A program made the position numbers. Below, one piece after another: positions 6,001 to 15,000 of a stretch of DNA of 44,916 bases. Source of the stretch: Longimicrobiales bacterium (GTDB lineage Bacteria > Gemmatimonadota > Gemmatimonadetes > Longimicrobiales > Gaopeijiaceae); contig CBDANQ010000007.1 in the NCBI GenBank assembly GCA_965197725.1, positions 1-44,916 on the forward strand. The letters run 5' to 3'. Position 1 is the stretch's first letter. Each line of letters begins with the position of its first letter.

Positions 6001-9000
6001 CGCGGGCACCGCGCGCCGGCTGCCACCTTCGTGGGAGACCGACGCGTGGCTGGTCGCCCAGCTGCGCGGACAGGGCGCCGTTTTCGTGGGCAAGACCCAC
6101 ACCGTCGAGCTCGCGTACGGCGCAGTCGGCATCAACCCGCACTGGGGCACGCCCCGAAACCCCTGGGATGCACAAAACGCTCGCATCCCAGGAGGGTCGT
6201 CATGTGGAGCGGGCGTGAGCCTCTGGGAGGGCTCAGCCCTGGTCGCGCTCGGTAGCGACACAGGCGGCTCGATCCGCGTCCCCGCGTCCATGACCGGGAC
6301 GGTCGGCCACAAGCCTACGCACGACCGTTGGTCGGTGGCCGGGGTCGTGCCGCTGAGTACGTCACTCGACAGCGTCGGCGGACTGACGCGCACCGTAGAG
6401 GACAGCGTCTACTTCTTCGGCGCGATCGACCCCGCGTGGGGGGAGGCAAACGCACTGCTCCGACATCTCTCCACGTTGGCCCCCGCTGGCCTCCGCATTG
6501 CCGTGCCGAAATGCGACATCTGGGCCGATTGCCAGACCGATATCGCCGATGTCCTGGCACGTGCGCTCGACGACCTCGGCGCGCACGGATGGGATCACAG
6601 GGTCGTGGACGGCTCGCTGCTCGACGAAGCGCAGAGGCTGTACCTGACAGGTGGAATCGCCGGAGCGGAGTGCCTGGCTTTCCTGGAGCGAGACCTGCCG
6701 GGTTGGTTGGAGATCCTCCACCCGACGGTGGGCTCACGCTTCGCAGGCGCGCCCACGCACGACTCGGCGCGGTACACGACATCGATAGCCGAGCGCAAGC
6801 AGCTGATGGGCCGTGCGGAAACGCTCTTCGAGCGCGCCGATCTGCTCGTGCTGCCCACCGCGATCATCACACCCCCGCTCGTCTCGGCTTTGCACGACCT
6901 CGATCGGTACGTAGAGACGAACACCGCGGCGCTCCGCCCCACATGCGCCATCAGCATGCTCGGCTTGTGCGCGGTCACGCTTCCCGTGGGGCTCGACCGG
7001 GCCAATATGCCGGTGGGTTTGCAGTTGCTCGCACCGGCAGGTAAGGACGAGATGCTGCTGGGAGCTGCGCTCGCGGTCGAACGAGCGCTCGGGACCGCTG
7101 AGGGCCGGCTCGGACGGCCGCCCTACCTGGGCGCAGGCTGACGCTCTGGGATTGCTAGCCCAGGATCGGGCTCTTGGGTATCGTTGTAGGTTCTAGCAAA
7201 ACCGTCTGGGGACAGGGGAACACGCCCGCCTGATGTCGACCACACACTCCAATTCGAACGAGTGGGCCTTGATCCTCGGAGGCTCGAGCGGATTCGGCCT
7301 TGCCACGGCGCACAAGCTCTCTCGGCACGGCTTCAACGTCTGCGTCGTGCATCGCGATCGCCGGGGCGCGATGAAGCGCATAGAGCCGGAATTCGAAGCG
7401 ATACGCGGAAGGGGCGCGTCATTGCTCACGTTCAACGCAGACGCGCTTGATGCGGACAAACGCGACGAGATCCTGGACGGTCTCGCGGAGTCGCTCGGAA
7501 CCGCTGGCAAAGTACGCGTGATGTTGCACTCGATCGCCTTCGGCAACCTCAAGCTGATAGGTCCGGAGGGCGCTTCCGGCAACGATGCGCGGGAGCGGTT
7601 GGCTGCCGCGATGCACGTCGACCCCCCGCAGCTGGCGGAGACCGTCGACGGACTCTTCGAGCAGGAGGTGTATGGCCTGCAAGGCATTAGCACCGCACCG
7701 CAATACTCCTCCGATGCGTTCCTCGATGAGGAAGACATGGCGCGCACCATCCACTCGATGGGCACGAGCTTGCTCGGCTGGACTCAACGGCTCCGCGAGC
7801 GCGGCATGTTCGCTGACGACGCGCGCGTGTTCGGGCTCACCAGCGAGGGCAACGCCGTTGCGTGGAAGGGGTACGCGGCGGTCGCCGCGGCCAAAGTCGC
7901 GCTGGAGTCCGTGTCCCGAGCCATCGCGGTAGAAATGGCGCACTTCGGGATACGGTCGAACATCATCCAAGCGGGCGTCACGGATACGCCCGCGCTGCGC
8001 ATGATCCCCGGAAGCGGGCATCTGAAGGCGCAGGCCTTGACGCGGAACCCATTCGGCCGACTCACCACACCCGAGGATGTCGCCAACGTGATCTATCTCC
8101 TGTCTCAGCCCGAGGCCGCGTGGATCAACGGTGAGATCATTCGCGTAGATGGCGGCGAAGCGATTTCGGGGCTGTCACGATGAGCATGTACCTGCACGGG
8201 CTCGGGCACTTCCACCCCGAGAACGAGATCACCAACGAGTTCCTCACCGCTCTGGACATCGGCACCAACGCCCAGTGGATCGAGGAGCGCGTCGGCATCC
8301 AGTCGCGCCGCACCGTGATGTCGCTCGACTACATCAAAGAGACGCTCAACCGCGACTTCACGCAGGCCGCTGAGGCGTCCGACTACACGCACGCCGAGAC
8401 CGGCAGGCTCGCCTCGGAGATGGCGCTCCAGCGTGCGGGGCTCCGGGCGAGCGACATCGGCATGGTCATCGCCGGAGGCTGCAAACCGGACTTCATGTCT
8501 CCTGCCGACGCGTGCACAATCGCGGGGCGGCTCGGCATCGAAGCGCCGTCGTTCGACATCAACTCGGCATGCACGAGCTTCCACGTCGCGCTCTACACGC
8601 TAGCCATGATGAAGCCCGAAGCGCTTCCAGAGTTCGTGCTCGTGGTGACGCCGGAGACGGTGACGTGCTCGGTCGACTACTCGGAGCGCGCCGGAGCGGT
8701 GCTGTGGGGAGACGGTACGACAGCGGCGATCATCTCGACCAAGGTGCCTTCCCGCATCGAGATCCTCGGCAACTCGATCGAGTCGAGTCCGGCCGGGTGG
8801 GACAAGGTCACCATCGGGTCCGATGAGCATTTCCGCCAGGATGGCCGGACCGTCCAGATGTTCGCCATCAAGAAGACCGCGCGCGTGCTCAAGAGGCTAC
8901 AGCAGGAGTTTGCCGACCCCGGCCGGCGCCTCCACTTCGTGGGGCACCAGGCCAACCTGAGGATGCTCGACGCCGTATGCCAGCGATGCGAGATCTCCGA

Positions 9001-12000: not shown

Positions 12001-15000
12001 CTGATCTGCCCCAACCATCTGACCATGGTCGATTCGGCTTTGGTGACGTGGGCGCTCGGCGGGCCGTGGTGGTTGGTGTTCCACTACCGCTGGGTGCCGT
12101 GGAACCTGCCCGAGTACCACAACTTCGCTTCGGTGTGGTTCAGCCGAATGGCCGCGTGGGCGATCAAGTGCATCCCGATCGTGCGCGGCGGGGAGCGCGC
12201 ACAGGTCTCGAAGGTGCTCAAGCGCATCCAGCACGTCGTTTCGCGCGGCGACACGGCAATCATCTTCGCGGAGGGTGGTCGCAGTCGGACCGGCCGCATC
12301 CAGATGGAGACGATCGCACACGGTATGGGCAGGATCGTGAATTCCATCCCCGACTGTCACGCGCTATGCGTGTACCTGCGTGGCGACCGGCAGGACAGGT
12401 GGTCGACGATCCCGAAGCGGGGCGATTCGTTCTACGTGGACTTCGAAGTGTTCCGCCCCGAGTCCGAGAACTCCGGCATGCGCCGCTCGCGTGACTTCGC
12501 GATGCAGATCGCGGACCGGCTGGTGCGGCTAGAGGAGAAGTACTTCGCGCTACAGCGGGCGACGCCCTAGACGCCGTCGGGGGGGCACCCGTGATGTGGC
12601 CGTGTAAGGGCCTCGACTTCAGCTGGGAAGACTGGGTCTTCGCGCTCGAGTCTTCGCTCACCCCACCTCGCCGCCGGACCCTGGGTGCCCGGGTCGAGCG
12701 GCTCTGGTCCGAAGACGGTGACGCGATCGCCTGCCTCACGGTGCGCTCGGCATTCGACCTCTTCCTGCGATCGACGCGGTGGGATGGGGGCGACGAGATC
12801 ATCTTCTCTGCTGTCACGGTACCCGACATGCCGGTCGTCGCCAGGCACCATGGTCTGCGCACTGTGCCCTTGGACATCGACCCGATCACGACCGTGTGGG
12901 ACGCGGCTGAGCTCGAGGCACTGATCGGTCCGCGTACGCGGGCCGTCGTGCTCACCCATCTCTACGGAGCCCGACTCGACGTCGAACCCGCCGTCGAAGT
13001 CGCTCGGCGTCACGGCATCATGGTGATCGAGGACTGCGCGGAGGCGTACGCGGGCCCGGAATGGAGGGGGCACGCCGAAGCGGACCTCAACCTCTTTTCC
13101 TTCGGCCCCTTGAAGACGGCGACCGCGGTCGGTGGAGGCCTCGTGCGCGTGCGCAATGCCGGGCTACGGGAGCGAATGCGCTCGATCATGAAGAGTGATC
13201 CGGTACAACCCACGCTCGAGCACCTCCGGCGGCTGATCATCTATGGCGCGTTAAAAGCCTCCACCAACCCTCACCTCTTCGGCATCTACATCGTGGTCCT
13301 GGGGGCACTGGGGGTCGACCACGCAGAGCTCATCCACAGGCTCCCGCGTAGCGTCAGCCGCGAGGATCTGCTCACCAGAATTCGCCGGCAGCCGTGCGCA
13401 GCCTTGCTGGCGCTTCTCGAGCGCCGCCTCTACGAGGGGGACGCCGCAATCTCGCGACGGACCGAGCTGGGCCGCTCGCTCTTCGAGGCCTTGGGACCGG
13501 AAGTCGATTTGCCGACCCGGGAGGTCGACACCCACAGCTATTGGTTCGTGCCGGTTCTCACGTCCGAACCCGAGGCGCTCGCTCGCGAGCTCCGCAGCGA
13601 AGGCTTTTACCCGATGTCAGGACGACTCGCCGTGGTTACGGACACCAGCGCCCCGGATACCGCTTCGCCCGGTGCGCAACGGCTCGTTACAAGGAGCGTG
13701 TACATCCCCTTCGATCCCCAGATGCCAGCGCTCGAGCTGAAGCGCCTGGGTGGAATCGTGACCGCAGCCGCGAAGAAGGTCCCGTGACCGTTGAAGACGT
13801 CGAACGCTTCGAGAAGATCGGTCGGAGCCTCGACGAGCTCGTCCATATCGCGTGGCAGAAGCGGGCGTTCGATATAGCGTTCTCCTTGCTGCTGATCGTA
13901 ATCTTCTCGCCGGTCATCGTGTTGATCCTGTTGGCGATCACTGCGGACGGGCTGCTCGTCCCGGGGTACCGGGGCCCCCTCTTTCTGACCGAGGACCGTG
14001 GCTCGGAGGGCGACATCTTCCACCTGCCCAAATTCCGGATCATCCGCATGGATAGCTTTCGGCGAATCCGCAAGACGCAGAAGTACCAGCACATCAAGCC
14101 CATCGAATCCGACCCGGACAACGTCACGAGAGCCGGCGCCATTCTGAAGCGGTTCTACCTCGATGAGTTACCGCAGCTGTTCTCGATCCTGAAGGGCGAC
14201 ATGAGCTTCGTCGGCCCACGCCCCTGGCCACTCGAGCCGTACTACGAGGAACTCGAGAAAGGGATCTTCAGAAAGCGACTGATACGCCCAGGGCTTACGG
14301 GGCTCGTGCAAGCCAACAAGGGTGTCAAAGGCGGCCCTAACGAGTGGGCCCTGGACTTCGCGTACATCGGCTTCATGCACGCCGAGCGAAGCGGATGGGC
14401 GAAGCTCGCCTTCGACCTGCGGGTGCTGACGCACTCGACGAAGACGGTGTCCGAGGGAAAAGGGCTGTAGGCAGCGCACCACCACCGGCACGACCTCGAA
14501 ACCGCTACCGTGATCTGCTACCCTCGTACTAATCGGCCGACTATTTTCGCGCCCCCTTGAGTGCCGAGACCCTGACCGCCTAGCGCAAATCGAGCGCGCG
14601 AGGTCGAACGAGAGAGGTCTATGCTCGACACATCCCGCACGGATGCAGATGGAACGCGACGCGCCGTGCGGTCTCGGGCGGCCGGGACGGCACGGACACT
14701 GCTTGCGCTCATCGGCCTGGTCATCTGCTTCCCACCCTCCTTGCTTGCGCAGCCCGCCGACCGTGGAGAAGTAGTGGCCGTAGGCGAGCGCTATCGCGCT
14801 GGGCCCCTCCATCGGTGGATCCTGGGCCGACACTACCGCGAGATGGTGTCCCGCTGACAGTTGAAGGTGGTGGCGCCGGAGAGTCTCTTGGTTAGCCTGT
14901 CTTTCTCATTTCGGCAACCGGTTCATGGTCGTCGAGGTGGGCCCTGAGCATCCAGAGCTGGTCGTAGCCGATGATCCTCCGGTAGCTCTTCTCGGTTTCC

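Follow-up and report, generated by a model that had tools for sequence, protein, structure and literature searches.

Can a bacterium that keeps a full housekeeping type II fatty acid synthase (FAS) also encode a separate line for making unsaturated fatty acids without oxygen? The question is raised by an operon at positions 7233–12570 of a 44,916-nucleotide stretch of DNA from a Longimicrobiales bacterium of the Gemmatimonadota (hereafter, the window), described in the survey's finding as a second, self-contained FAS II operon with FabA and FabB. Judging from the sequences analyzed here, oxygen-independent unsaturated fatty acid synthesis appears to be the likeliest job of the operon.

Layout of the operon and its genomic background

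The operon lies where the survey had placed it and consists of seven same-strand ORFs with short overlaps or gaps, all intact and with catalytic motifs:

7233..8183, + strand: FabL-like SDR, probable enoyl-ACP reductase (316 aa)
8180..9175, + strand: FabH-like KAS III of its own subfamily (331 aa)
9172..9765, + strand: FabA-type dehydratase, putative trans-2/cis-3 isomerase (197 aa, GTG start, ~20-aa C-terminal extension)
9762..10235, + strand: FabZ-like dehydratase of the His/Glu type (157 aa)
10235..11512, + strand: elongating ketosynthase (KS) of a clade sister to FabB (425 aa)
11561..11806, + strand: dedicated ACP (81 aa)
11815..12570, + strand: PlsC/LPLAT-type acyltransferase (251 aa)

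Three junctions are 4-bp overlaps (8180–8183, 9172–9175 and 9762–9765), and the others are a 1-bp overlap at 10235 and two gaps, one of 48 bp and one of 8 bp. The GC content of the region is close to that of the remainder of the window, and the surroundings are IS-rich. A promoter scan of the operon returned no sites, and terminators were at chance level. Contigs from two RNA-labelled runs, mostly 85–99% alike, cover pieces of the region; because contigs cannot show transcription, we make no claim of transcription from them. The usual plsX-fabH-fabD-fabG-acp-fabF cluster is indeed located on contig C61. The operon is not self-contained, however, as NCBIfam and Pfam identify no FabG, FabD or PPTase among its seven ORFs. 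Since the hosts keep the full housekeeping FAS and other acyltransferases, the operon would constitute an additional line.

The survey had also recorded no desaturase and no FabI, FabK or FabV. This holds for the present assembly, which is 88.9% complete and in which a FabK-like protein scores below cut-off, but not as a statement of biology: both 99%-complete congeners carry a desaturase and FabI, so that the absence is most likely an assembly gap. In one of them (G042) the two genes lie within a 90-kb stretch that is missing from the present assembly and that continues exactly where contig C20 ends. The genome also contains the tail of a Pfa-type PUFA synthase. Desaturases were found in 16 of 23 cassette-bearing versus 77 of 97 cassette-lacking relatives, counted by PF00487, a family that also holds non-fatty-acid enzymes and in which only the G042 desaturase was typed; no anti-correlation with the cassette emerged. 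PfaD is present in 9 of the 23 carriers, and therefore other routes to unsaturation exist.

The enzymes of the operon

Motif, tree position and fold all mark the dehydratase encoded at 9172..9765 as FabA-type, and its isomerase activity is putative. It retains CHF..DPVQPGCLG.D, with the His/Asp catalytic dyad; His76 is invariant and Asp90 is found in at least 90% of a 40-row alignment, and the motif HF..DPV.PGCLG.D is present in 78 of 80 loci. In the tree, the protein falls on the FabA/Pfa-DH side (support 99) within a subclade of its own (support 95), and with its predicted model (pLDDT 89.9) the best Foldseek folds are FabA at E 1e-20 versus FabZ at 3e-9. The protein had been said to pass the NCBIfam fabA model and to keep the His/Asp motif. 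The motif stands, as does the match to NF003509 (202.9 against a cut-off of 124), a model that the Pfa DH protein also passes, but a second fabA model, TIGR01749, is missed (172 vs 238.15). With the references used here, the identity of 51% given for gammaproteobacterial FabA comes to 45.6% for E. coli FabA and 46% for P. aeruginosa FabA. The window protein also contains an insertion in the loop that aligns with the basic, ACP-binding residues of E. coli FabA. Isomerase function is not predictable from sequence, as cited in the available text of a Verrucomicrobia preprint (bioRxiv 10.1101/2025.09.03.673897).

The ketosynthase does not bear out the survey's statement that its best hits are FabB, as NCBIfam ranks fabF (301.5) above fabB (257.6), with both under cut-off (630 for fabB), and the top PDB match is a KAS II (202.6 bits vs 195.8 for FabB). 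Its Cys-His-His motifs occur in 64, 63 and 61 of 65 homologues. In an 18-row quick tree with a long stem, the KS is placed as sister to FabB (support 96) and outside the FabB clade. Grouping with FabF was rejected (p-AU 0.0125), and the fabF model cut-off is missed as well. At 19 diagnostic columns, 7 residues are FabB-like, 5 FabF-like and 7 other, with a FabF-like Ile in the FabB Gly107 column. By these comparisons the KS is no clean FabB and forms a clade of its own next to it. What remains of the proposed FabA/FabB pair is a FabA-type dehydratase with a FabB-related KS.

The SDR has FabL as its best NCBIfam match (117 bits vs a cut-off of 328) and the NADPH enoyl-ACP reductase 3oic as its best PDB match, and Y-x6-K is found in all 56 full-length homologues. 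Relatives of the SDR appear to replace FabI across genomes; 25 of 120 family genomes have stand-alone relatives, and none of these 25 has PRK06300 FabI. A role for the SDR as sole enoyl reductase of the cell was rejected, because 19 of the 23 cassette carriers have PRK06300 FabI. The FabH-like enzyme matches Pfam ACP_syn_III and scores below the NCBIfam fabH cut-off; among 72 homologues the Cys, His and Asn motifs are found in 71, 72 and 64, respectively, and its three nearest Atlas clusters are mostly Myxococcota or Thermodesulfobacteriota. The FabZ-like protein, which has a Pfam FabA-like domain, lies below the NCBIfam fabZ cut-offs and forms its own clade beside FabZ, with the His...Glu motif in 76/76 homologues. 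The acyltransferase belongs to PF01553 and has NHx4D in 63 of 64 homologues; the genome contains four other PF01553 matches, one of them stronger and PlsC-like, on C49.

Carrier protein, neighbors and distribution

The dedicated ACP (Pfam PP-binding) has NSARLVD[VI] where the housekeeping ACP has DSLDTVE. The motif NSARLVD is found in 63 of 66 homologues, the remainder being two mis-anchored by the pattern and one without a match. Although the window operon has no PPTase, 42 of the 55 loci with room have one after the cassette, and 22 of 80 loci include a FabG-like gene. The atypical ACP, usually with a dedicated PPTase, suggests a private assembly line. Such a line might make a special acyl chain, of unusual length or double-bond position, hydroxylated or branched, for one lipid and not bulk monounsaturated phospholipid, which we regard as possible but rather unlikely. 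The strongly divergent yet conserved ACP motif, the PPTase and the operon's own acyltransferase are in keeping with a special chain, as are the non-canonical KS motifs HLTAT (63/65) and FGFGD (65/65), the redundancy with desaturase and Pfa, and the placement of each enzyme inspected by tree in a clade of its own. However, the 80 loci show no conserved tailoring gene next to the cassette; the clusters flanking it are PPTase, FabG, a large, unannotated upstream ORF (12 loci) and biotin carboxylase (4 loci). A link to the downstream DegT and sugar transferase genes was rejected, as these occur in 1/80 and 0/80 loci, respectively. It is also conceivable, if doubtful, that the ACP with its NSARLVD recognition helix, the PPTase, the KS as a third elongating class next to FabB and FabF, and the acyltransferase form a widespread, portable and orthogonal synthase insulated from the host FAS. 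Its chain, in double-bond position or structure, would lie outside the range of classical FabA/FabB and would enter a specific membrane lipid in sediment bacteria of several phyla.

The order from FabH to the acyltransferase is kept in all 53 loci with room, and all seven genes in 44 of them, in agreement with the survey's report of the same order in other genera. The cassette FabA is found in 23 of 120 family genomes, near the survey's rate of 6 in 41, and in 4 of 300 genomes of a phylum sample. This patchiness and the IS-rich surroundings would fit a horizontally acquired cassette that is decaying or silent, with no current role. We consider this very improbable; the seven ORFs are intact with their motifs, the GC content resembles that of the window, and both congeners carry the cassette, as do all three members sampled from genera g10, g15 and g26. 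A plasmid collection contained no match of at least 60% for FabA, KS or FabH. Record titles were rejected as a guide to phylum range: those naming Geobacter, Spirochaetales, Deltaproteobacteria and Myxococcales belong to loci of a single phylum sample, so that they are no evidence for Spirochaetota or Desulfobacterota. In the phylum of that sample, 29 of 201 genomes match.

In another phylum, 5 of 26 loci are without FabA at its place in the cassette. This would suit a general second synthase for straight-chain acids where the housekeeping line makes iso-branched ones, with FabA an optional add-on. A Myxococcus FabH groups with CBU_0038 in a published tree (PMC5423948), M. xanthus is blocked in straight-chain fatty acids when its FabH MXAN_0853 is lost (a result cited in PMC9548883), and in a cultured family-level relative the main acid is iso-C15:0, with C16:1 w5c also present (PMC11651109). 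MXAN_0853 stands alone, however, without fabA, and FabA is kept in 19 of the 26 loci and in 80/80 of the set that was selected on FabA; we therefore view the straight-chain synthase as improbable. Neither synteny nor homologue names established orthology of MXAN_0853 to the window FabH or its identity with the Myxococcus gene of the published tree.

Proposed function and relation to known systems

We lean, by a little over even, toward an accessory type II line working on its own ACP, which would make cis-monounsaturated chains without oxygen and load them onto membrane lipid. In this scheme the FabH-like enzyme would prime the operon's ACP with a short chain, ketoreductase and malonyl transfer would be supplied by the housekeeping cluster (a FabG of their own is found in some relatives), and the FabZ-like enzyme and FabL-like SDR would run the saturated cycles. 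At mid-length, the FabA-type enzyme would convert the trans-2 chain to cis-3, the FabB-related KS would elongate the cis-3 chain past the reductase, and the PlsC-type enzyme would put the finished chain onto a lysophospholipid. The motif, tree position and fold of the FabA-type protein, the position of the KS as sister to FabB, and the gene order in 53/53 loci argue for unsaturation; FabA adjacent to a FabB-type KS is also the E. coli logic, as given in the available text of PMC2649909. Arguing against it are the lack of complementarity with desaturases, PfaD in carriers, the miss of TIGR01749, the FabF-like Ile in the KS and the loci without FabA.

If monounsaturated chains are made, the cassette would be a portable oxygen-independent route common to uncultured Gemmatimonadota, myxobacteria-like and acidobacterial lineages, and would bear on how unsaturated-lipid biomarkers in sediments are read. 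The private ACP/PPTase/KS set could find use as an orthogonal fatty-acid line. Occurrence in Gemmatimonadota alone represents a wider host range and no new mechanism.

Compared with the proteobacterial FabA/FabB branch, the window shares the FabA fold with its His/Asp dyad and a KS related to FabB, and, as in the Rhodobacter fabA-fabB-SDR operon, an enoyl reductase is inside the operon. In contrast, the window FabA has an identity of ~46%, a C-terminal extension and a loop insertion, and the KS does not fall within the FabB clade. Moreover, classical FabA/FabB use the housekeeping ACP, whereas the window has a private ACP, FabH, FabZ and acyltransferase. A further parallel is the FabN/FabO route of Enterococcus faecalis. 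There, a second dehydratase and a second KS likewise lead to unsaturated chains outside Proteobacteria, but the enzymes are FabZ and FabF homologues, as described in the available preprint text (bioRxiv 10.1101/2025.09.03.673897), whereas the window has a FabA-type dehydratase and a separate ACP. Ladderane-type clusters of anammox bacteria and Desulfotalea were rejected as counterparts; in the source portions available, their defining genes are of the radical SAM and phytoene-dehydrogenase-like kinds, and none of these is among the seven ORFs.

The closest match is a FabH-FabA-FabZ-FabB-ACP block in Coxiella burnetii (CBU_0038-CBU_0034) and Spirochaeta africana (Moses 2017, PMC5423948, in the parts available to us). 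The survey had allowed that FabA/FabB outside Proteobacteria might already be reported; this block, outside the classical proteobacterial setting, confirms it, which makes the present finding less surprising. That source bases the block's assignment to unsaturated fatty acids on homology only, and the Coxiella copy was acquired horizontally. Our literature search (mostly open-access texts, with bioRxiv preprints without supplements) returned no biochemical test of the block and no paper on the operon in Gemmatimonadota; the window provides an environmental-host version for testing the block. Block and window agree in five gene types and in their arrangement, a match by order and not by sequence, and both are accessory to a vertically inherited FAS and horizontally spread. 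The FabH relatives in the published tree (myxobacteria, Syntrophus and Desulfatibacillum) correspond in taxon to the clusters nearest to the window FabH, an indirect match, and the near relatives listed in that tree (PMC5423948) include no Gemmatimonadota carriers. Unlike the Coxiella/Spirochaeta block, the window adds an enoyl-reductase-like SDR upstream and an acyltransferase, often with a PPTase, downstream.

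Organization and distribution of the cassette

All seven ORFs of the operon that the survey placed at 7233–12570 are intact and lie on the + strand; four of their junctions overlap, two carry short gaps, and the GC content is similar to that of the rest of the window. Family scans identify a FabL-closest SDR, a KAS III (FabH), FabA-like and FabZ-like hotdog proteins, an elongating ketosynthase (KS), an ACP and a PlsC-type acyltransferase (AT). The housekeeping plsX-fabH-fabD-fabG-acp-fabF cluster was likewise located on contig C61. Across the scanned GTDB genomes, 259 FabA relatives were confirmed, and the best 80 of these loci were compared, 27 being too short for gene-order judgement. 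Within the remaining 53 of this best 80 of 259, the order FabH-FabA-FabZ-KS-ACP-AT claimed earlier is kept in every locus (53/53), and the complete seven-gene set stands in order in 44. Among the same best 80 of 259, a gene for a PPTase, the carrier-protein activator, lies downstream of the cassette in 42 of the 55 loci with room for it; 22/80 carry an inserted FabG-like gene. The operon is real and well conserved, with a probable predicted function; that it is a silent relic we consider highly improbable.

The cassette FabA occurs in 23/120 family genomes, in 4/300 genomes of the phylum sample, and in 29/201 genomes of one other phylum, probably Myxococcota to judge by the labels of its records. 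Spirochaetales- and Geobacter-labelled loci sit inside that one phylum, and such labels are therefore no proof of host range. Acidobacterial-labelled sequences interleave with Gemmatimonadota in the KS tree, a mixing that would fit transfer.

Directly after the operon (12591–14470) lie a DegT-family aminotransferase-like gene and a small sugar transferase, a pair that is present in the closest relatives only and does not belong to the cassette. Within 14621–19699, pieces of a Mutator-family (IS256-like) transposase (14892–15428 and 16534–17187) are bordered on one side by a short ORF that looks secreted and on the other by an ORF of 915 aa with no Pfam match and an outer-membrane-protein-like appearance. 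Comparable fragments at 35381–36109 and 38638–39678 flank, by eye, more transposase-like ORFs.

Predicted activities of the cassette proteins

Alone among the seven proteins, the cassette FabA clears its NCBIfam cut-off (NF003509); it falls below that of TIGR01749. Its identity to E. coli and Pseudomonas FabA is ~46%, lower than the 51% to gammaproteobacterial FabA given earlier. Residues His76 and Asp90 are conserved among homologues, the protein belongs to a separate clade on the FabA/Pfa-DH side of the tree, distant from FabZ, and the top fold matches of its confidently predicted structure are all FabA.

The KS has an intact catalytic triad. The survey had named FabB as its best hits, yet the fabF score is slightly above that of fabB. 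In a quick tree of 18 of the 45 KS rows, rooted on a type I KS outgroup and with the cassette KS on a long stem, the protein is sister to FabB (support 96); a grouping with FabF was rejected (p-AU 0.0125). Its residues at 19 diagnostic columns are FabB-like in 7, FabF-like in 5 and neither in 7. By model score and by its place outside the FabB clade it does not count as a FabB; the predicted action is plausibly FabB-like.

The SDR carries Y-x6-K, and its best structural match is an enoyl-ACP reductase. Stand-alone relatives (42–49% over the C-terminal half) occur in 25/120 family genomes and PRK06300-type FabI in 70/120, with 0 genomes shared. This mutual exclusion supports an enoyl-reductase role and, in a comparison whose genomes include kin and are not independent, likely reflects a non-orthologous enoyl-reductase swap. 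The family genome G053 has FabV, and the source genome encodes a FabK/nitronate-monooxygenase-like flavoprotein (C61, 19031–20011; 259.6 bits versus a FabK cut-off of 453).

FAS enzymes and PPTases dock on the ACP helix around the carrier serine. There the cassette ACP reads NSARLVD where the housekeeping ACP has DSLDTVE, which, together with the linked PPTase, suggests a private assembly line. A distant relative (~31–33%) of the cassette-type PPTase in the source genome (C29, 20917–21666) is a candidate activator of this ACP. Shortly downstream of the acyltransferase, loci L070, L075, L084 and L091 contain a large biotin-carboxylase-containing ORF (domain scan on the L070 ORF), suggesting an own malonyl-CoA supply in those loci.

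Host lipid background and proposed product

We lean toward an oxygen-independent line in which cis-monounsaturated chains would be built on the private ACP, FabG and FabD would be borrowed from outside the operon, and the acyltransferase would pass the finished chain to lysophospholipid. The survey's finding of no desaturase and no FabI describes this 88.9%-complete assembly, which gave no match, but both genes are present in both 99%-complete congeners. In one of these, G042, the desaturase is DesA-like and the FabI of the PRK06300 type, and the pair lies in ~90 kb (C2, 86718–178323) that starts at the end of our contig C20 and is missing from the source genome except for one 376-bp match. 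Desaturase-family genes are about equally common in cassette carriers (16/23) and noncarriers (77/97); FabI occurs in 19/23 carriers, and PfaD in 9/23 carriers and 16/120 family genomes. The source genome itself contains a Pfa-like tail and ole-like genes:

C61, 1–10538 (L095): Pfa-type PUFA synthase tail and the genes after it; the tail comprises three ORFs at the contig start with KS, AT-like and three FabA-like DH domains

The tail is followed by oleA-, oleB-, oleC- and oleD-like genes and then a PPTase; G042 (C79) encodes two large KS proteins together with PfaD. This gene set suggests polyunsaturated hydrocarbon synthesis in Gemmatimonadota. The operon is therefore an extra: the cell does not obtain unsaturation or reduction from it alone.

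A special acyl chain or special lipid as the product is possible, though we hold it doubtful, and the bolder reading, in which the synthase is orthogonal and its product distinct, is equally doubtful. The operon could also be a general second synthase for straight chains with FabA optional, which seems improbable. In favor of this straight-chain reading, FabA is absent from its place in 5/26 cassettes (L183, L185, L190, L192 and L194, arranged SDR-FabH-FabG-FabZ-KS), two of these five genomes encoding it elsewhere, and loss of the M. xanthus FabH, MXAN_0853, blocks straight-chain fatty acids (as cited in PMC9548883 and PMC4048283); a comparison by synteny and homologue names, however, did not link that protein to the window FabH as an orthologue. 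Two FabH genes of the cassette subfamily stand alone (L187, L191).

Comparison with known cassettes

Our literature search found no Gemmatimonadota description of the operon and no biochemical test, though subscription journals and supplements may hold more; the main text of two Gemmatimonadota papers (PMC11651109, PMC11316326) does not mention fabA. The Verrucomicrobia preprint that the survey listed as a possible FabA/FabB precedent outside Proteobacteria is not one, since its accessible text reports FabB to be absent there; it also states that sequence does not decide isomerase function.

A closer counterpart is the Coxiella burnetii block CBU_0038-CBU_0034 (FabH, FabA, FabZ, FabB, ACP), whose gene arrangement recurs in Spirochaeta africana. 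The accessible text of Moses et al. 2017 (PMC5423948) proposes a deltaproteobacterium or spirochete as donor, assigns a role in unsaturated fatty acids by homology, and cites two transposon mutants with reduced intracellular growth; a Coxiellaceae preprint (10.1101/2022.10.26.513839) likewise discusses the fabA of this block. Compared by order, not sequence, the block and our cassette agree. The Atlas clusters closest to the window FabH and FabA come chiefly from Myxococcota or Thermodesulfobacteriota, like the neighbors in the Moses tree (PMC5423948). The cassette type is already known from Coxiella and Spirochaeta africana, and the Gemmatimonadota operon, as judged by gene order, adds another member.
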